Shown here one piece after another: positions 6,379-60,777 of a stretch of DNA of 64,000 nt. A program made the translations under genes and the position numbers. The stretch's first letter is position 1. Each line of letters starts with the position of its first letter. Origin of the DNA: an uncultured Nitrospiraceae bacterium (GTDB lineage Bacteria; Nitrospirota; Thermodesulfovibrionia; Thermodesulfovibrionales; Dissulfurispiraceae). The DNA is taken from positions 1 to 64,000 of the forward strand of contig CAVPIW010000005.1 in the NCBI GenBank assembly GCA_963705105.1, in the 5' to 3' direction. The notes under the pieces are model-generated. The model was not told the origin of the DNA, did not search any database, and saw only the letters and a list, made by a program, of their open reading frames with translations.

Positions 6379-6444
6379 CCTACTATGCATTTGTGGTATA
6401 AGAAAATATGAGAACAAAGATTTACCACAAGTCGGTACCAAAAG

Positions 6445-6575
6445 ATAGGCAGGAGAACTTTCTTGCAACTGGGTCATCGAACCCTTCTTGTAGTGTGTTC
6501 CCTGCCTCTCATAACCCTGATCGGTTGATTGGGCATAAAGCCCTTGTCACGATGGAGTACGGGTTGAGAGGCAGT
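6445..6575 (+). ncRNA. Predicted bridge RNA (target- and donor-binding loops)
   Basis: Two stem/internal-loop/hairpin modules whose loops match the target and donor junctions; exact RNA ends unknown. Confidence 0.75.
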
Positions 6576-6617
6576 TCCTGCTTCGTCTCTACGGTGCTGC
6601 ACTAAGGAGGTGCTGCT

Positions 6618-7808
6618 ATGTTCACCCTGTATGTTGGCGTCGACGTCAGCAAAGACACATTTTCGTGCACGGGATTGCACAACAAGGCAGAAAAGCGATT
6701 CTGCCTGACTGCATCTATGAACCGTACCGGATTTGCTGATCTGTTGGAAACGATCAGGAATCACTGCTCTGAGACATCCTCGGTCTTGGTCGGCATGGAG
6801 TCCACAGGGTGTTACCATGTCAATTTGTATTCTTTTCTTGCGGCTCATGATATAAAAACCGTTGTGATCAACCCTCTGTTGATCAACAACTTCGCAAAGC
6901 TGTCGCTGAGGAAAACGAAAACAGACAAGAAGGATTCCCTTCTGATCGCCCAATTTCTTGTGCTCAATACCACTGCGATCTCTGCCGTGTCTGTGTCCGA
7001 GGATCATAGAGACCTCAGGGAGTTGGCACGGGAACGAGAATCCATCAGCCATCTCATCGCAAAAACGAAGACAGAGATTCGCCAGGCCCTGCACAGGACA
7101 TTTCCCGAATTGCCATCACTCTGCAATGTGTTTTCCCGGGGGATGCTTGAATTCCTCAAGGCGTTTCCGTCTGCCAGGATGATCCGACTTGCAAAACCCA
7201 AGGCTATCAGCAAAGCTCTTCGACCTGCAGATAAGAGGAAAACTCCTCCTGTCTCTGCCGAGCAGATCATGGAGGCGGCGAGGAGCTCCGTTGCATCCAT
7301 CTCTCTGGCGAAAGAATTGATTGTCCCCGGGAAGATTGCAACACTCCTGCATCTGCAGCAACGACTCACCGAGATGACAGAACTGCTTGAAAACATCTGC
7401 AAGGCGACTATGGTGCAGGACCTTGAGGTACTGACATCGATCAAAGGAATCAGCACCAAAACGGCGATTCCCTTTCTCGCTGAACTATCAGCAATCGAGC
7501 GCTTCGACTCGTACAAAAAACTGATCGCATATGCCGGGCTGGATCCTGCGATATACAATTCAGGAAAACGACAAGCGTCCGGTAAAATCTCAAAGCGCGG
7601 CAACAGTCACCTCAGACGTGTCATTTGGTTGATGACTTTTTGTACGGTACGCCAAAATCCGGTCATGAAGGATTACTTTCTGAAAAGGATCAGAGAGGGC
7701 CTTCCCTTTAAAAAAGCAATGATGGCAACCTCGCATAAGCTTCTTCGCCTCATCTATGCGATGTTGACCCGCAAAACCTATTATGTCCCTCAAATCTCAA
7801 ATGCATAA
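6618..7808 (+). CDS. IS110 family recombinase/transposase
   Basis: VGVDVSK, MESTG, KTDKKD (DEDD RuvC); AYAGLDP...NSG...ISKRG catalytic Ser region. Confidence 0.96.
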   Translation: MFTLYVGVDVSKDTFSCTGLHNKAEKRFCLTASMNRTGFADLLETIRNHCSETSSVLVGMESTGCYHVNLYSFLAAHDIKTVVINPLLINNFAKLSLRKTKTDKKDSLLIAQFLVLNTTAISAVSVSEDHRDLRELARERESISHLIAKTKTEIRQALHRTFPELPSLCNVFSRGMLEFLKAFPSARMIRLAKPKAISKALRPADKRKTPPVSAEQIMEAARSSVASISLAKELIVPGKIATLLHLQQRLTEMTELLENICKATMVQDLEVLTSIKGISTKTAIPFLAELSAIERFDSYKKLIAYAGLDPAIYNSGKRQASGKISKRGNSHLRRVIWLMTFCTVRQNPVMKDYFLKRIREGLPFKKAMMATSHKLLRLIYAMLTRKTYYVPQISNA

Positions 7809-46362: not shown

Positions 46363-46637
46363 TGTCATCCCGGCTCGTCCGGGATCCTTCTTAAAGAAAC
46401 CATTCTGTTGCATGAAAAGGCGGGGCGAAGCGCCTCAAAGCCTTGCTGAAGGCGACGATACGCCTCGTCAGCTTCGTGTTTCAGGATTCCACTCTTTGTG
46501 CATCGACCATTGGCGTATAGTTCATCTCTCGTTTTGATACAGGTGTCGCCGCAGCAAGGTTTTCGGCGCATACTCCCCGCCTTTCCCGTGAGTGTATTGT
46601 AACGATAAGGGAAAGATTCCCGACAAGCGGGAATGAC
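46363..46637. repeat. GTCAT...ATGAC REP doublet enclosing a - strand subtype A repeat (46398-46610)
   Basis: GTCATCCCGGCTCGTCCGGGATC ... GATTCCCGACAAGCGGGAATGAC. Confidence 0.88.
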
Positions 46638-52327: not shown

Positions 52328-53308
52328 TTGGGATCCATCGTCGTGACAGGCTGTTGCGGATTCATCGGGTACAAGGTCACCGACCTCCTCCTGGAAAGAG
52401 GCTACGGCGTCGTCGGCATCGACATCATGAACGATTACTATGACCCGAGGCTCAAGGAGCTGCGGCTGAGCCTGCTGAGAGGGAGGGACCGCACAGGCGC
52501 TTTCCACTTTCACCGGATCGACATCTCCGACCGGTCGGAAGTGAGAACGGTCTTTTCCAATCACGCCGTTGCCGGCGTCATCAATCTCGCCGCCCGGGCG
52601 GGAGTGCGCGCCTCCGTGGAAGACCCCTGGGCCTATCTCGACACCAATGTCAAGGGCACGCTGAATCTGCTCGAATGCTGCAGGGAGCACGGCGTCGGGA
52701 AGTTTGTCCTCGCCTCGACATCGAGCGTCTACGGTGACAACACCGACATCCCTTTCAGCGTCGACGACAGGACCGACCATCCCCTTGCCCCCTATTCGGC
52801 TACGAAAAAGGGCGCCGAGGTCCTCTGTTACAGTTATCATTACCTGTACGCGACGAATATCACGATTCCGCGTTATTTCACAGTCTACGGGCCCATGGGC
52901 CGCCCTGACATGAGCATTTTCCGCTTCATCAAGAACATCGACATGGGAAAAGCCATCCCCGTCTTCGGTGACGGCAGGCAGAAAAGGGACTTCACATACA
53001 TCGACGACATCGCCGAGGGCACGATCAGGTGCCTCAAGCCTGACGGGTACAATATATTCAATCTCGGCAATGACGGGCCCGTCGAATTGATGTATGTCAT
53101 CAACCTGATTGAAGAACACCTTGGACGGAAAGCGACCATAGAGTGGCTGCCTCTCCATCCCGCGGACATCACCGCAACCTGGGCGGACATAAATTCCTCA
53201 CGGCAGACCCTTGAGTGGTCCCCGACGGTGACAATCGAGGAAGGGGTCCTGAGAACGGTCGAATGGTACAGAAAAAATAGAGAGTTTGTTCAGAATTTAA
53301 CGGATTAA
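52328..53308 (+). CDS. NAD-dependent epimerase (UDP-glucuronate epimerase-like)
   Basis: VTGCCGFIG, YSATK, VYGPMGRPDM. Confidence 0.92.
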   Translation: MGSIVVTGCCGFIGYKVTDLLLERGYGVVGIDIMNDYYDPRLKELRLSLLRGRDRTGAFHFHRIDISDRSEVRTVFSNHAVAGVINLAARAGVRASVEDPWAYLDTNVKGTLNLLECCREHGVGKFVLASTSSVYGDNTDIPFSVDDRTDHPLAPYSATKKGAEVLCYSYHYLYATNITIPRYFTVYGPMGRPDMSIFRFIKNIDMGKAIPVFGDGRQKRDFTYIDDIAEGTIRCLKPDGYNIFNLGNDGPVELMYVINLIEEHLGRKATIEWLPLHPADITATWADINSSRQTLEWSPTVTIEEGVLRTVEWYRKNREFVQNLTD

Positions 53309-53326
53309 CAAGCGAGGAGGAATAGC

Positions 53327-53746
53327 ATGCAAAAGATACTGGTAGCTCACGACGGTTCGAAATCGTCCGACAAGGCCCTCAAGAAGGCTGTAGAATTGTC
53401 ATTGAGCCTTAACGCCTCCCTGACCGTCCTGTCGGTCGTTCCCGAGCTTTACCTCACTGAGCTCTCAGACTCGGACAGGAGCAGGATATTTGAGGCCCTC
53501 TCGAAGGAGACGACCGATGCGATGGAAAGGATCCGCAAGTCCCTGTCGGGCAAATCGATCGAAGTCAAAACGCTCGTGAGACAGGGTGACCCTGCCGAGA
53601 AGATACTCGAGACGGCGCAGAAGATGAAGGTCGACATGGTCGTCACGGGGTCGCACGGCCGGCATGGCACGAAGAAATTCCTTCTCGGAAGCGTCTCGTC
53701 CAAGATCATCGATTACTCGAAATGCCCGGTTCTCGTTGTGAAATAG
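53327..53746 (+). CDS. Universal stress protein
   Basis: KILVAHDGS, GSHG...LLGSVS. Confidence 0.95.
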   Translation: MQKILVAHDGSKSSDKALKKAVELSLSLNASLTVLSVVPELYLTELSDSDRSRIFEALSKETTDAMERIRKSLSGKSIEVKTLVRQGDPAEKILETAQKMKVDMVVTGSHGRHGTKKFLLGSVSSKIIDYSKCPVLVVK

Positions 53747-53938
53747 AGTCTGTCCATAAAGTAAGCTTCAGCTGTCATTCCCGCAACCCCGCACTTGATG
53801 CGGGGGCGTCGGGAATCCTTCTGAAACAACGATTCCGGACAAGACATAATGTATTAACCCTGTCCACAAACTTAAGTGACGTGGGTTAAGCTTAAGTGAG
53901 GGCTGAAGCTCAGAGCCACAATTAAGGAGGGACAGGGT

Positions 53939-55075
53939 ATGAAGAATTATAGCAAGTATGTCGGGCTTGATGTCCATAAGGAACGGATCCAGGTAGCGAT
54001 TGCGACGGCAGGCAGAGGCGAGCCGATGTTCTACGGTGAGATCGACAACAGGCCTGAGGCGATCAGGAGATTGGTCAAGAAGATCGCGAATGGTGGGGAC
54101 GTGTTGTATTGTTATGAGGCGGGTCCGTGCGGCTATGGGACGTATCGTCAACTGAGGGAGCTTGGCTATGCCTGCGAGGTGGTTGCGCCCTCGCTTATAC
54201 CGAGGAAGGCGGGCGATCGAGTTAAGACGGACCGCCGGGACGCGGTGAGCTTGGCAGGATTGCTGAGGGCGGGGCAACTGACGGCAGCATGGGTGCCTGA
54301 TGCTGAGCAGGAGGCGATCCGCGACTTGACGCGGATTCGTTTGGACATGAAGGCAGTGGAACGGCACTTTCGGCAGCGGCTGGGGGCGTTTCTGCTCAGA
54401 CATGGAAAGCTCTATCCGGGCAAGAGCCCGTGGACGCAGGCTCATTTTCGGTGGCTGGAGGGCCTGAAGTTTGACAGCGCTGTGCAGCAGATTGTTTTTC
54501 AGGAATATGTCGACGCTGTGGTGCAGGCAGGGCAGCGAGTCAAGGCGATTGAAGAGGAAATGCGACGGGCTCTGGAGACGTGGTCGCTGGCGCCGGTGGT
54601 CACAGCGCTGATGGCATTGCGGGGGCTGAAGATCGTGGGAGCGATGACGGTGGTGGCGGAACTCGGCGATGTGACCCGTTTCAGCAATGCGTCTCAGCTG
54701 ATGGCGTATCTCGGTCTGGTGCCCAGCGAGCATTCCAGCGGGGCGAAGCGGAGTCGAGGCGGGATCACCAAGGCAGGCAACGGGCATGCGCGGCGAATCC
54801 TGATCGAGGCTGCGTGGTGCTACCGGTTTCCCGCACGCAAGACGGCGGTGCTGCAGCGGCGGGCGGAGAAGACCTCTCCGGGGGTGCAGTCGATTGCGTG
54901 GAAGGCTCAGAAGCGGTTGTGCATGCGCTATCAACATCTCCTGCTGCGGGGAAAGCGGCCAGTGGAAGCCTGCACGGCGGTTGCCCGTGAGCTCGCTGGC
55001 TTCATCTGGGCGATTGTCTGTGAGGTCATGTCTGGCGCACCCGGACGCAGTGTGCTCGTCGCCGCAGCGAGCTGA
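53939..55075 (+). CDS. IS110 family transposase
   Basis: VGLDVHK, YEAGPCG, VKTDRRDA, YLGLVPSEHSSG. Confidence 0.97.
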   Translation: MKNYSKYVGLDVHKERIQVAIATAGRGEPMFYGEIDNRPEAIRRLVKKIANGGDVLYCYEAGPCGYGTYRQLRELGYACEVVAPSLIPRKAGDRVKTDRRDAVSLAGLLRAGQLTAAWVPDAEQEAIRDLTRIRLDMKAVERHFRQRLGAFLLRHGKLYPGKSPWTQAHFRWLEGLKFDSAVQQIVFQEYVDAVVQAGQRVKAIEEEMRRALETWSLAPVVTALMALRGLKIVGAMTVVAELGDVTRFSNASQLMAYLGLVPSEHSSGAKRSRGGITKAGNGHARRILIEAAWCYRFPARKTAVLQRRAEKTSPGVQSIAWKAQKRLCMRYQHLLLRGKRPVEACTAVARELAGFIWAIVCEVMSGAPGRSVLVAAAS

Positions 55076-55139
55076 TGGCGGTGGTTCGCCAAGGAATGGC
55101 ATGATAAAACCAGCTATAACCATGGTCATGAGATGGAAC

Positions 55140-55302
55140 GGGCATGAGGTGTTGTCTTGGAGAATCCTCGCTTCCGGCATGAGGCTCCTAAAAGGATGAT
55201 CCTCGATACAAGACAGAGGCAACTCCGCGACGAAGACAAGTCATGCGGTAACCAACCCGCGCATATCAGCATGATCAACCGTCGCTGTGCACCTCATGCC
55301 CA
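55140..55302 (+). ncRNA. Predicted seek/bridge RNA of IS1111 copy 1
   Basis: GGGCATGAGGTG...CACCTCATGCCC closing stem around two guide-bearing loops. Confidence 0.72.
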
Positions 55303-55505
55303 CACAATGCCATTAAACACACGAGCCTCACCGAGGACTCTTGACAGGGTTAATACATATCAGCCGGAATGACAAATATACTGCACGTCATGAGTTTGTG
55401 GACAGACACTAAATAAGGAACCAGCGGCGTAACGACGGGGCACACAACAAGGCGCAGCATATCAGGAAGGGAAGCGGCTCAGTCATTACGAGCCGGCGAG
55501 ATACT

Positions 55506-56105
55506 TTAGAACAATTCCCTGAGGGTCTCTCGGGAAAGCTTTTCGATTTCCCGGTGAAGGCTGTTTCCGTGGGTGTCCATGGTGACGATGACCGGGAAAT
55601 CCTCGATCTCAAGCATCCACATCGCCTCGGGCTCGCCGAATTCCTCGGCCTTCCAGACATCAACGACCGCCTTTATCCTGTCCGCCAGGTAAGCGGCGGC
55701 GCCGCTGATCGTGTGGAGGTAGACGGAGCCGCACTCCATCAGGGCTTCAAGCGTTTTCTCTCCCATTCCGCCCTTCCCGATAATACCGGTTATGCCGTAT
55801 GTCCTGATGACGTCCGCCTCGTACAGTTCGACCCTCATGCTCGTCGTCGGCCCGGCGGCGATCAGCTTGTAGGAATCGTCGGTCTTCCGGATTATGGGGC
55901 CGCAGTGGTAAATGGTCCCTCCTGCAAGGTCGAAGGGAATTTCGTCCTTCCGGGGCCTTTCATGGGCGAGGAACTTGTGCACCCTGTCCCTGCCCGTGAC
56001 GATCATACCGCTCAGGAGGAGCATGTCACCCACCCGCAGCTCCCGGGCGAGCCCCTTCAACTCGTCGGTCCTGATTCTTCTCGTTCCCGCCGTGGTCATC
56101 GTCAC
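55506..56105 (-). CDS. Fe-S fumarate/tartrate hydratase beta subunit
   Basis: GRD..H, HCGP, AGPTTS.R, GKGG. Confidence 0.93.
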   Translation of the reverse strand: MTMTTAGTRRIRTDELKGLARELRVGDMLLLSGMIVTGRDRVHKFLAHERPRKDEIPFDLAGGTIYHCGPIIRKTDDSYKLIAAGPTTSMRVELYEADVIRTYGITGIIGKGGMGEKTLEALMECGSVYLHTISGAAAYLADRIKAVVDVWKAEEFGEPEAMWMLEIEDFPVIVTMDTHGNSLHREIEKLSRETLRELF

Positions 56106-57836: not shown

Positions 57837-59177
57837 TCAAAGGTCGATCCCGTATTCCTTTATCTTGTATTGAAGCGCTCTCACCGATATGCCGAGGAGC
57901 TCCGCTGCACCCCTCCGGTTTCCCCTTGTCGTTCTGAGGGCCTTTTCTATGGCCGCCTTTTCCATGGTCTTCAGATCGATAAGCATGTTCGGTGCCACTT
58001 CCGGTTCCGGGGCCCGGATCTCCAGCGCAGGCAGAACGATCTCCCTTCCCCTGCTCACGATTATGGCGCGCTCCAGCACGTTCTCCAGTTCACGAATGTT
58101 CCCCGGCCAGTGATAATGCATCAGCCTGTCAAGAGAATCAGCGGAAAGCGTCACCCCTTCCTTTCCCAGCCTCGCCGACAGCTTCTGCAGGAGGAAATGC
58201 GCGACCGTGGCGATGTGATCCCTTCGTTCCCTTAACGGCGGTATATGGACAGGGAAGACATTGAGCCGGTAGTAAAGATCCTCCCTGAACGTGTGATCTT
58301 CGACCATCGATCTCAAATCCCTGTTCGTCGCGGCGATGACCCGCGCATTCGTTCTGATCGGCGTGAGCGACCCGAGACGCTCGAAAGTCCTCTCCTGGAG
58401 TACCCTGAGGAATTTCGCCTGCACGGACAGGCTCATCTCCGTCACCTCATCAAGAAAGACAGTGCCGTCCTGGGCGATCTCGAAACGGCCCTGTTTGCGC
58501 GAAAGGGCGCCCGTAAAGGCCCCGCGTTCATGACCGAAAAGCTCCGATTCGAGGAGGCTTTCAGGGATAGCCGCGCAGTTGATCTCTATGAAGGGACCTT
58601 TTCTGCCGCTCAGGTGGTGGATGACCCGCGCAACGAGGCTCTTGCCTGTGCCCGTCTCCCCGGAAAGGATGACCGTCGCATCCGTCGTCGCGACTTCCCT
58701 GATCTCTCCGAGCGTCTCCTCCATACCCACAAAGACAATGTCGAGGGGAGGCGTATCTCCGAGGGCGTCCGATTTCAGGAACCGGTTCTCCGCCGTCAGG
58801 CGCTGCCTTTCATAGATCCTCAGGACTGTGATCCGGAGCTGCTCAGGATCGCGGAGCGGCTTCGTGATATAGTCGGCGGCGCCCATCTTCATCGCCGATA
58901 CAGCCGTCTCGACGGTGGCAAAGGCCGTCATCATGATGACGTCGCATTCGGCATTCCTCTTCTTGACCTCCTCCATGAAGCGGATCCCGTCCATGCCCGG
59001 CATTTTGAGATCAGTGATGACGAGGTTCGGATTGAACTGTTCTAAGGTCCTGAGGGCCGCCACGGCATCGGTCATTCCCTCCACGTGGTACCCCTCATCC
59101 TCGAGGACGCTCCTGAGGAGAGTGACGAAGGCCCTCTCGTCATCGACGATGAGTATCCGGAAGCTCTCTCTGCTCAT
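57837..59177 (-). CDS. Sigma54-dependent response regulator
   Basis: Receiver, GETGTGKS, GAFTGA, HTH. Confidence 0.94.
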   Translation of the reverse strand: MSRESFRILIVDDERAFVTLLRSVLEDEGYHVEGMTDAVAALRTLEQFNPNLVITDLKMPGMDGIRFMEEVKKRNAECDVIMMTAFATVETAVSAMKMGAADYITKPLRDPEQLRITVLRIYERQRLTAENRFLKSDALGDTPPLDIVFVGMEETLGEIREVATTDATVILSGETGTGKSLVARVIHHLSGRKGPFIEINCAAIPESLLESELFGHERGAFTGALSRKQGRFEIAQDGTVFLDEVTEMSLSVQAKFLRVLQERTFERLGSLTPIRTNARVIAATNRDLRSMVEDHTFREDLYYRLNVFPVHIPPLRERRDHIATVAHFLLQKLSARLGKEGVTLSADSLDRLMHYHWPGNIRELENVLERAIIVSRGREIVLPALEIRAPEPEVAPNMLIDLKTMEKAAIEKALRTTRGNRRGAAELLGISVRALQYKIKEYGIDL

Positions 59178-59300
59178 GTCGTTATTATTGGCGCAGTCGT
59201 TTGTAAAGACTCAATCGATATGTGATTCTGTCATTCCGGCTGATATGTATTAACCCTGTCAAGAGTCCTCGGTGAGGCTCGTGTGTTTAATGGCATTGTG

Positions 59301-59463
59301 TGGGCATGAGGTGCACAGCGACGGTTGATCATGCTGATATGCGCGGGTTGGTTACCGCATGACTTGTCTTCGTCGCGGAGCTGCCTCTGTCTTGTATCGA
59401 GGATCATCCTTTTAGGAGCCTCATGCCGGAAGCGAGGATTCTCCAAGACAACACCTCATGCCC
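59301..59463 (-). ncRNA. Predicted seek/bridge RNA of IS1111 copy 2
   Basis: Reverse complement of 55140-55302. Confidence 0.7.
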
Positions 59464-59527
59464 GTTCCATCTCATGACCATGGTTATAGCTGGTTTTATC
59501 ATGCCATTCCTTGGCGAACCACCGCCA

Positions 59528-60664
59528 TCAACTCGCTGCGGCGACGAGCACACTGCGTCCGGGTGCGCCAGACATGACCTCACAGACAATCGCCCAGATG
59601 AAGCCAGCGAGCTCACGGGCAACCGCCGTGCAGGCTTCCACTGGCCGCTTTCCCCGCAGCAGGAGATGTTGATAGCGCATGCACAACCGCTTCTGAGCCT
59701 TCCACGCAATCGACTGCACCCCCGGAGAGGTCTTCTCCGCCCGCCGCTGCAGCACCGCCGTCTTGCGTGCGGGAAACCGGTAGCACCACGCAGCCTCGAT
59801 CAGGATTCGCCGCGCATGCCCGTTGCCTGCCTTGGTGATCCCGCCTCGACTCCGCTTCGCCCCGCTGGAATGCTCGCTGGGCACCAGACCGAGATACGCC
59901 ATCAGCTGAGACGCATTGCTGAAACGGGTCACATCGCCGAGTTCCGCCACCACCGTCATCGCTCCCACGATCTTCAGCCCCCGCAATGCCATCAGCGCTG
60001 TGACCACCGGCGCCAGCGACCACGTCTCCAGAGCCCGCCGCATTTCCTCTTCAATCGCCTTGACTCGCTGCCCTGCCTGCACCACAGCGTCGACATATTC
60101 CTGAAAAACAATCTGCTGCACAGCGCTGTCAAACTTCAGGCCCTCCAGCCACCGAAAATGAGCCTGCGTCCACGGGCTCTTGCCCGGATAGAGCTTTCCA
60201 TGTCTGAGCAGAAACGCCCCCAGCCGCTGCCGAAAGTGCCGTTCCGCTGCCTTCATGTCCAAACGAATCCGCGTCAAGTCGCGGATCGCCTCCTGCTCAG
60301 CATCAGGCACCCATGCTGCCGTCAGTTGCCCCGCCCTCAGCAATCCTGCCAAGCTCACCGCGTCCCGGCGGTCCGTCTTAACTCGATCGCCCGCTTTCCT
60401 CGGTATAAGCGAGGGCGCAACCACCTCGCAGGCATAGCCAAGCTCCCTCAGTTGACGATACGTCCCATAGCCGCACGGACCCGCCTCATAACAATACAAC
60501 ACGTCCCCACCATTCGCGATCTTCTTGACCAATCTCCTGATCGCCTCAGGCCTGTTGTCGATCTCACCGTAGAACATCGGCTCGCCTCTGCCTGCCGTCG
60601 CAATCGCTACCTGGATCCGTTCCTTATGGACATCAAGCCCGACATACTTGCTATAATTCTTCAT
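59528..60664 (-). CDS. IS110 family transposase
   Basis: Same as copy 1 except KAVER to KAAER. Confidence 0.97.
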   Translation of the reverse strand: MKNYSKYVGLDVHKERIQVAIATAGRGEPMFYGEIDNRPEAIRRLVKKIANGGDVLYCYEAGPCGYGTYRQLRELGYACEVVAPSLIPRKAGDRVKTDRRDAVSLAGLLRAGQLTAAWVPDAEQEAIRDLTRIRLDMKAAERHFRQRLGAFLLRHGKLYPGKSPWTQAHFRWLEGLKFDSAVQQIVFQEYVDAVVQAGQRVKAIEEEMRRALETWSLAPVVTALMALRGLKIVGAMTVVAELGDVTRFSNASQLMAYLGLVPSEHSSGAKRSRGGITKAGNGHARRILIEAAWCYRFPARKTAVLQRRAEKTSPGVQSIAWKAQKRLCMRYQHLLLRGKRPVEACTAVARELAGFIWAIVCEVMSGAPGRSVLVAAAS

Positions 60665-60777
60665 ACCCTGTCCCTCCTTAATTGTGGCTCTGAGCTTCAG
60701 CCCTCACTTAAGCTTAACCCACGTCACTTAAGTTTGTGGACAGGGTTAATACATTATGTCTTGTCCGGAATCTTTCT

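Follow-up and report, generated by a model that had tools for sequence, protein, structure and literature searches.

The stretch of DNA analysed here (the window; positions 1-64,000, forward strand, of contig CAVPIW010000005.1 in assembly GCA_963705105.1, from an uncultured Nitrospiraceae bacterium) harbours two copies of an unnamed insertion sequence, each of which interrupts a repetitive extragenic palindrome (REP) and consists of a transposase gene followed by a long non-coding right end. An initial annotation of the window had described it as an IS1111-group element whose right end carries RNA guides for a REP. Whole-genome searches, covering the 19 contigs (4.23 Mb) of the assembly, returned only these two copies, and 53831-55373 (+) aligns with 60772-59230 (-) over 1543 of 1543 positions at 99.68% identity. 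The element and its target comprise:

53844-55363 (+), insertion sequence copy 1, 1520 bp counting one AG; ends set by empty sites and by relatives
59240-60759 (-), insertion sequence copy 2, a 1520-bp element placed by alignment to copy 1
53831-53843 (+), left half of the REP-like target, GATTCCGGACAAG, forming the 5' arm and loop of a hairpin
53842-53843 (+), core AG common to target and element, from comparison with empty 23-mer sites
55364-55373 (+), right half of the REP-like target, CCGGAATGAC, forming the 3' arm of the hairpin
53939-55075 (+), transposase gene, 378 aa, with a DEDD RuvC-like domain and a Tnp domain
53849-53864 (+), left subterminal inverted repeat ATGTATTAACCCTGTC, a 16-nt perfect match to the right repeat
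55343-55358 (+), right subterminal inverted repeat GACAGGGTTAATACAT, 16 nt, perfect, followed by ATC and then AG
55341-55346 (+), TTGACA hexamer overlapping the right inverted repeat
53845-53850 (+), CATAAT, by its sequence a -10-like hexamer in the left end

The transposase matches PF01548 (E 1.3e-15), PF02371 (E 3.9e-21) and the NCBIfam model NF033542 'IS110 family RNA-guided transposase' (253 bits, cut-off 140). Residues D11, E60, D98, D101, S267 and G268 are kept in at least 98% of 61 unique family sequences, and the stretch GLVPSEHSSG fits the GL-P----SG motif given by Siddiquee et al. 2024 (PMC11187229). Judging from motifs, not from a structural alignment, D11/E60/D98/D101 and S267-G268 are presumably the catalytic positions. 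The gene is bordered by non-coding stretches of 95 nt on the left (upstream) and 288 nt on the right (downstream). ACATA precedes the left repeat, which makes a 7-nt extension (AGACATA) with the core counted, and the right extension is ATC (3 nt); published IS1111 elements have a left extension of 7 (or 6) bp and a right one of 3 bp (PMC11187229). The subterminal inverted repeats of this group are put at 11-13 bp by Siddiquee et al. (PMC11187229) and at 7-17 bp by Durrant et al. (PMC11208160). Indeed, the IS1111-type anatomy that the initial annotation had recognised is present in full, with 16-nt subterminal repeats, 7- and 3-nt extensions and the longer non-coding region on the 3' side.

The junction sequences are identical in both copies and read ...GATTCCGGACAAG/ACATAATGTATTAACCCTGTCC...GACAGGGTTAATACATATCAG/CCGGAATGAC, that is, both copies split the palindrome GATTCCGGACAAG/CCGGAATGAC at the same single AG, corresponding to the CT of the opposite strand noted initially. 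The uninterrupted 23-mer GATTCCGGACAAGCCGGAATGAC occurs 28 further times in the genome. Empty sites contain a single AG and occupied sites an AG at both junctions with nothing extra, which indicates insertion without target duplication. Since the empty 23-mer sites hold a single AG, the element carries one AG shared with the target; if this AG is counted on the left, the bounds of copy 1 become 53842-55361. The span originally given for the element, 53831-55373, has to be corrected, as it includes the target halves, and the element proper is 53844-55363. The target repeat is a hairpin with a 7-bp stem (ATTCCGG/CCGGAAT) and the loop ACAAG, and the element sits between the last loop base and the 3' arm. 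Of the 1543 aligned positions, 5 distinguish the copies; one of these changes the protein (V140A) and another the predicted RNA: 55222 is A in copy 1 and G in copy 2, and G is also found in four sequencing runs and in the family consensus (GGCAGCTCC).

The 3' non-coding regions of related elements align over a core of ~165 nt, and the structure of the RNA predicted there was tested on an alignment of 39 distinct sequences. The features derived from it are:

55140-55301 (+), predicted seekRNA/bridge-RNA domain, ~162 nt, from covariation; nhmmer envelope 55135-55311
59302-59463 (-), predicted RNA domain of copy 2, from the RNA profile match
55140-55150 with 55291-55301 (+), closing stem of the RNA, consensus structure
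55159-55226 (+), putative target-binding module, consensus structure
55159-62 with 55223-26 (+), stem 1 of the target module, consensus structure
55166-69 with 55216-19 (+), stem 2 of the target module, consensus structure
55181-55204 (+), inner hairpin of the target module, bordering its internal loop of 11x11 nt, consensus structure
55171-55178 (+), predicted right-flank (top-strand) guide position, CTTCCGGC, family alignment
55206-55212 (+), predicted left-flank (bottom-strand) guide position, ATACAAG, family alignment
55227-55285 (+), putative donor-binding module, outer stem 55227-32/55280-85
55245-48 with 55257-60 (+), inner hairpin of the donor module, consensus structure
55238-55242 (+), predicted donor guide for the left end, AAGTC, 4/5 positions pairing
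55262-55269 (+), predicted donor guide for the right end, CATATCAG, an exact copy of the terminal 8 nt of the element

RNAalifold, run on the 39 sequences, folded them into a closing stem and two modules with compensatory change in 21 of 36 pairs. In a hand-written structure of 37 pairs, 93.5% of the pair cells are paired as compared to 37-45% after a shift of the 3' partners by 1-3 columns, and 22 of the 37 pairs have changed on both sides, i.e. in a compensatory manner. Shuffles reached the observed structure values in 0/500 cases on four of five measures and in 1/500 on the fifth. Judged by this covariation, the 3' non-coding end is a conserved structured RNA with two internal loops, in agreement with the RNA that the initial annotation had placed in this region. 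A sequence profile made from the alignment matches only the two element copies in this genome, and it detected no orphan RNA copies there of the kind of ssr9 of ISPpu9.

All four short matches on which the initial annotation had relied are present, and they fall into the two internal loops. TTCCGGC (55172-55178) complements the core G plus CCGGAA of the right flank, and ACAAG (55208-55212) repeats the final 3 nt of the left flank together with the core AG, in register with the ..AG of the family; both lie in the target loop, which is variable among relatives. GTC (55240-55242) complements the core G plus AC of the left end and lies together with CATATCAG (55262-55269) in the conserved donor loop. 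The top-strand match stands 5' of the bottom-strand match, and the same guide order is reported for seekRNAs of the IS1111 family (PMC11187229). A further candidate for the left target guide, GACAAG at 55235-55240, which the initial annotation does not mention, was rejected, this stretch being conserved in relatives with other targets.

The relatives come from a one-genome-per-species scan that yielded 249 confirmed elements. The best 80 of these 249 were kept; their transposases are 57-72% identical to that of the window, and their records belong to Nitrospirota, Gamma-, Alpha- and Betaproteobacteria, Acidobacteriota, Gemmatimonadota, Latescibacterota and others. Their ends are conserved (..AG/ACATnATGkATTGACCTG ... 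CAGGTCAATmCATATCAG/) and their flanks differ. A right end was assignable at 66 of the 80 loci, plus the window, and 14 loci with no recognisable end in the retrieved DNA were dropped (L017, L022, L032, L033, L041, L070, L071, L075, L076, L077, L079, L080, L083 and L084). In the family, the 8 nt that follow a conserved CCTCG match, as reverse complement, AG and the six bases with which the element's own right flank begins, down to single-base exchanges: the guides AGCCTCCT, AGGCTCCT and AGACTCCT accompany the flanks GAGGCT, GAGCCT and GAGTCT, respectively, and further examples are GCCACACT with TGTGGC and AAGAACCT with GTTCTT. When 48 unique guide/flank pairs were compared with 2206 mismatched pairs as control, the constant core being excluded, matches of at least 5 nt linked the guide to its own flank in 30/48 pairs as compared to 1.8% of the mismatched pairs, and matches of at least 4 nt in 42/48 as compared to 11.3%. 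The left flank recurs on the 3' strand of the target loop, in 7 nt whose last bases are (T/A)AG. Here, the guide matches its own flank contiguously over at least 3 nt upstream of the core in 22/49 cases versus 5% of 2216 mismatched pairs, and 22/49 is a lower bound, because the search pattern was out of register in WIN1, L055 and L072-L074 and gave no match at five loci. Where one genome has several copies, these often have only CTAG in common on the left and 12-20 nt on the right.

The donor guides, in turn, follow the ends of the elements. The guide for the right end reads ATACCAG in L025, L026 and L057 (right end CATACCAG) and ATATCAA in L067 (right end CATATCAA), L055 being an exception to this correspondence. 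For the left end, relatives have ATGTC facing GACAT (G plus ACAT), and L044 has AGGAC where its left end is ACCT. Two further sources of relatives added little: in 40 genomes of the same family or order the transposases are only 29-33% identical and of no use for guide comparison, and a metagenome scan with the 21-nt right end gave one match, which stops 20 nt inside the element so that no guide is readable. Since the guides track flanks across relatives from many phyla, the question of chance matches in the window can be regarded as settled, and the 5-mer and the 3-mer of the window gain their meaning from their position in the family alignment. We consider it highly probable that, as the initial annotation had proposed, this IS1111-type element is directed to REPs by an RNA from its 3' end; the target guides would lie in the variable and the donor guides in the conserved loop. 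Both insertions in this genome are in sites that match the guides exactly, and a probable third, a scar described below, is in a REP of the same type.

The observed anatomy, RNA structure and guides that follow flanks and ends across relatives allow a mechanism to be sketched. The DEDD transposase would be guided by the ~162-nt RNA, for which the 3' non-coding region would be the template. Within the target loop, TTCCGGC on the 5' side would pair with the REP 3' arm on its top strand (GCCGGAA), and ACAAG on the 3' side, which equals the REP loop sequence, would pair with the bottom strand. AAGTC and CATATCAG in the donor loop may pair likewise with the joined ends of a circular intermediate (...CATATC-AG-ACAT...). 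Recombination at the shared AG would then place the circle between hairpin loop and 3' arm without target duplication. Published work on ISEc11, ISPa11, ISKpn4 and IS621 suggests that the transposase binds the RNA, that a circle forms and that strands are exchanged at the core. Joining of the ends would also create a promoter, as TTGACA and CATAAT are brought to a spacing of 18 nt in the circularised element; junction promoters have been described for this family (PMC12288879).

Several observations weigh against RNA guidance or at least against its simplest form. In the window itself the left match spans no more than 5 nt and the GTC donor match no more than 3, and each is at chance level when taken alone. 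Among 5000 mononucleotide shuffles of the non-coding region, 257 (5.1%) contain a match of at least 7 nt to the complement of the right half and 4444 (89%) one of at least 5 nt to the left half, and 89 (1.8%) contain both in the right order within 60 nt. The register of the right-flank guide is unusual as well: most of the 34 distinct guides (a hand count from the guide listing) end in CT at the 8-nt position and pair with both core bases, whereas the 7-bp pairing of the window guide CTTCCGGC is shifted by 1 nt toward the inner stem, which leaves the core A unpaired and facing an A. This offset is not an alignment slip because the loop lengths equal those in relatives; L019 likewise has GC where most guides end in CT, and the donor loop shows the same geometry family-wide (GTC, then A). 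In 6 of the 48 pairs (L031, L034, L053, L054, L055 and L072) the match to the right flank is only 2-3 nt long. As for the RNA, the sequence folded alone reaches its minimum free energy (-64.1 kcal/mol) in a structure that pairs up the guide loops and therefore differs from the consensus fold (-48.9 kcal/mol); a single-sequence fold of the complete non-coding region likewise departs from the family fold and was set aside as evidence. A scan of 53000-56000 at E values up to 1 gave no Rfam match. Finally, a contig from a run labelled RNA-Seq covers 55095-55270, and the two runs with this label, in the form of contigs only, also cover parts of the transposase gene; the label is a flagged guess and the material possibly DNA, strand and RNA ends are not readable from contigs, and the coverage is no proof of transcription. 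The contig that covers 55095-55270, which comes from another sample, carries T>G at 55207, and this exchange lengthens the left-guide match to GACAAG.

The shortness of these matches invites the proposal that protein-DNA contacts alone recognise the REP and that the RNA matches are coincidental or the 3' region serves only as a binding or regulatory site. The weakness of the window matches in isolation (7-mer in 5.1% and 5-mer in 89% of shuffles) and the fact that the RNA itself is only predicted speak in its favour. However, the guides, 34 of them distinct, follow their own flanks from a constant position within a covariation-backed structure, and elements that have conserved ends and transposases only 57-72% identical to the window's are found next to quite different flanks, which makes recognition by protein alone very improbable. 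We regard it as slightly more improbable still that a duplicated chromosomal segment, and not two insertions, gave rise to the two copies, in which case the choice of target would be uninformative. The copies do lie only ~4 kb apart and in opposite orientation, but their similarity stops at the REP edges 53831 and 55373 and the flanks beyond differ. Moreover, in two DNA metagenome runs the element-bearing contig stops 13-16 nt to the left and 11-28 nt to the right of the element, as is expected of a repeat set in several REP contexts. Contig depths from sequencing runs are not copy numbers, and joints in runs X1 and X2 that skip the 1520 nt with short sides (22-44 nt) may just be other empty REPs.

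A third alternative would refine RNA guidance and not replace it. According to this proposal, recognition is dual, the RNA pairing with the target and the transposase reading the REP hairpin (stem ATTCCGG/CCGGAAT, loop ACAAG) as a structure. It could explain why the insertion point coincides exactly with the boundary between hairpin loop and 3' arm, and it would help a pairing that totals only ~11 nt and includes a short left guide; L013 is also inserted at the centre of a perfect palindrome, and a stem-loop gate has been reported for ISPpu10 in a preprint (10.64898/2026.03.19.712850). Yet the left flanks of most relatives are not palindromic with the right ones and differ among copies in the same genome, so the hairpin is not general in the family. 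Overall, we judge a structural reading of the hairpin to be rather unlikely, far less so, though, than either recognition by protein alone or segment duplication.

The initial annotation had suggested tabulating occupied against empty REPs across the genome. The full 11-nt guide match ACAAGCCGGAA is found at 35 genome sites, 2 of them occupied and 33 empty, and 30 of the 33 empty sites fall in recognisable REPs. No occupied site was found among the other REP-like sites of the genome, i.e. those without the full match. The numbers are too small, and with only 2/35 full-match sites occupied, a further point against the reading, occupancy cannot test the rule. The same applies to two REP variants that had been cited as mismatched and unoccupied (46363 and 46615 in the initial annotation). 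Both exist, at 46364 (-) and 46615 (+), with 3 and 2 differences from the target, and both are empty; as evidence they carry no weight, 33 perfect sites being empty too. Conversely, ~33 further perfect sites in the host genome are open to insertion.

The target repeat is a REP in the broad sense, that is, a many-copy imperfect palindrome whose arms change together. The genome contains 114 sites with at most 5 mismatches to the 23-mer, and sub-families of the repeat have matched changes in both arms (TCCCGG/CCGGGA, TTCCCG/CGGGAA, TGCCGG/CCGGCA and CTCCCG/CGGGAG). PF01797 (Y1 transposase) has 4 matches in the genome, and none of these 4 genes has a REP-like site (at most 5 mismatches) within 1.5 kb. 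As 0/4 Y1 genes have such a site nearby, a link of these REPs to REP-associated tyrosine transposases (RAYTs) is unsupported and the repeat falls outside the strict-sense definition of a REP. Immediately to the left of copy 1, 53770-53830 forms a palindrome of a different REP sub-family (GTCATTCCCGCAACCCCGC...GCGGGGGCGTCGGGAATC). Because of this adjoining palindrome, the target REP can be seen as part of a larger composite repeat, which recurs with the same spacing at many genome sites.

Outside the window, a REP at C6:134425-134447 reads GATTCCGGACAAG-ACAT-AATGAC, the left-end bases of the element replacing CCGG after the AG; this is probably the scar of a third copy, lost through a deletion between two AATG motifs, one in the left end and one in the right flank. 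C7:190857-191156 and C7:1988-2424 contain fragments of further DEDD transposase genes, one of them with an internal TGA.

With regard to classification, among named transposases those of ISSfr2 (54.8% identity over residues 1-363) and ISEc45 (49.5% over 2-366) come closest, and both elements are filed as IS1111 in the Fig. 8b source data sheet of Siddiquee et al. 2024 (PMC11187229). The source data also list 619 unique insertions of ISEc45 and 14 of ISSfr2. In the identity table of that account, ISSfr2 groups tightly with about ten entries (45-60%) and is 16-26% identical to all others. The region downstream of the ISSfr2 transposase gene matches our RNA profile (E 3.5e-22), and the 8 nt at its right-flank guide position differ from the window's CTTCCGGC. 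The profile has no match in ISEc45, IS4321, ISKpn4 or IS5708, and the ends of ISSfr2 and ISEc45 were not found with the end patterns used here. In the available part of the published account (PMC11187229) we found no experimental test of the RNA of ISSfr2 or ISEc45. The transposase is 22-27% identical to those of IS4321, IS5075 and ISKpn4, which are thus no nearer to it than the IS110-type transposase at 6618-7808 of the window (24%), and its 378 aa lie outside the 330-350 aa published for IS1111 transposases (PMC11187229). On sequence grounds, the element belongs to the IS110 family with IS1111-type anatomy and to an ISSfr2/ISEc45 subclade; membership in IS1111 appears well founded on anatomy and, on phylogeny, rests on the filing of the nearest named relatives.

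At 6379-7808 the window contains another IS110-family element, which belongs to the other type; ~240 nt of non-coding DNA precede its transposase (6618-7808, 396 aa, PF01548 at 123.7 bits). The initial annotation had regarded the two elements as independent systems, with which our data agree: the transposases are 24% identical, and the 6379-7808 element, including the region upstream of its gene, is unmatched by the RNA profile.

Among experimentally studied elements, ISPa11 resembles the window element in its REP target, its 3' non-coding region and the position of the top-strand match 5' of the bottom-strand match (PMC11187229). It targets a Pseudomonas aeruginosa REP, and its seekRNA was co-purified with the transposase (PMC11187229). 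In contrast to the window element's nearest relative, ISPa11 stands in the main IS1111 cluster, to whose members ISSfr2 is ~20-26% identical (PMC11187229, table). IS621, for which structures have been solved (8WT6 and others), likewise combines a DEDD recombinase with a two-loop RNA and has separate target and donor loops, with which both strands around a core dinucleotide are read (PMC11208160); it also targets REPs (PMC11208160). However, the RNA of IS621 lies upstream of the gene and that of the window element downstream, guide order is reported as reversed between the IS621-type and IS1111 families (PMC11187229), and phmmer aligns the two proteins only over part of the C-terminal domain (residues 235-291, E 4e-6). 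ISPpu9, of the IS110 group, inserts into REPs by recombination of a target AG with an element AG (PMC12288879). Unlike the window element, it has no subterminal inverted repeats and possesses a long 5' untranslated region. Its downstream small RNA Ssr9 is reported to be dispensable for transposition and a separate mobile module, and ISPpu9 is therefore no model for the 3' RNA of the window element.

The mechanism proposed here is not new: guidance of IS110/IS1111 elements by seekRNAs or bridge RNAs, REP targeting included, was published in 2024. SeekRNAs have been reported for ISEc11, ISPa11, ISKpn4, ISPst6 and ISEc21 (PMC11187229), 93% of IS1111-group elements have a bridge RNA predicted within their right end (PMC11208160), and REP targeting by IS110-family elements has been known since 2003-2006, as the titles cited in PMC11208160, and PMC1525189, indicate. 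New are the unnamed element itself and a covariation-supported RNA model for the ISSfr2-like subclade. The finding explains why the element sits in repeated palindromes of its host, and it illustrates that an RNA-guided targeting system is recoverable by a reader from the raw sequence alone. The 34 natural guides from many phyla could help to choose or engineer compact programmable recombinases.

Beyond this, the subclade could conceivably read its targets asymmetrically and tolerate a shift of the guide register, such that the window element was naturally retargeted onto loop and 3' arm of a REP hairpin in its host. We put this forward tentatively, as less likely than not. The asymmetry may consist in a right flank that is set by 6 nt plus the core and a left flank set by only 2-5 nt plus the core. 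As for the shift, the target guides of the window may overlap on one base (G) and not on two (AG), just as the donor loop does family-wide. If this holds true, the 34 natural guides with their flanks represent a ready-made specificity map for an IS1111-type recombinase.

Some minor observations concern the targets and ends of relatives. Same-genome copies in three groups of loci (L044-L049, L052, L053 and L056; L060-L066; L010-L013) agree over 12-20 nt of the right flank but, on the left, only in CTAG or TTAG, and right flanks of the form GAGnCTGTCGGAC recur in relatives of different genera. These shared-flank targets may represent the edge of another repeat or mobile element. In L011 and L012 the last ~90 nt of the non-coding region contain a 77-nt extension ending in a second right end (…CATATCAA…GTTGACAGGTCAATACATATCAG), which by its sequence is a duplicated right terminus. 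The left flank of L007 ends in CACATATCAG, resembling a right end of the same family, and this element may have inserted next to a donor-like sequence. In the window, one end of copy 2 lies 62 nt upstream of an ATG (59175-59240, -). The open reading frame that begins there starts with MSRESFRILIVDDE and presumably encodes a protein resembling a response-regulator receiver. It is the right end of copy 2 that faces this open reading frame, and the insertion may alter expression of the gene.

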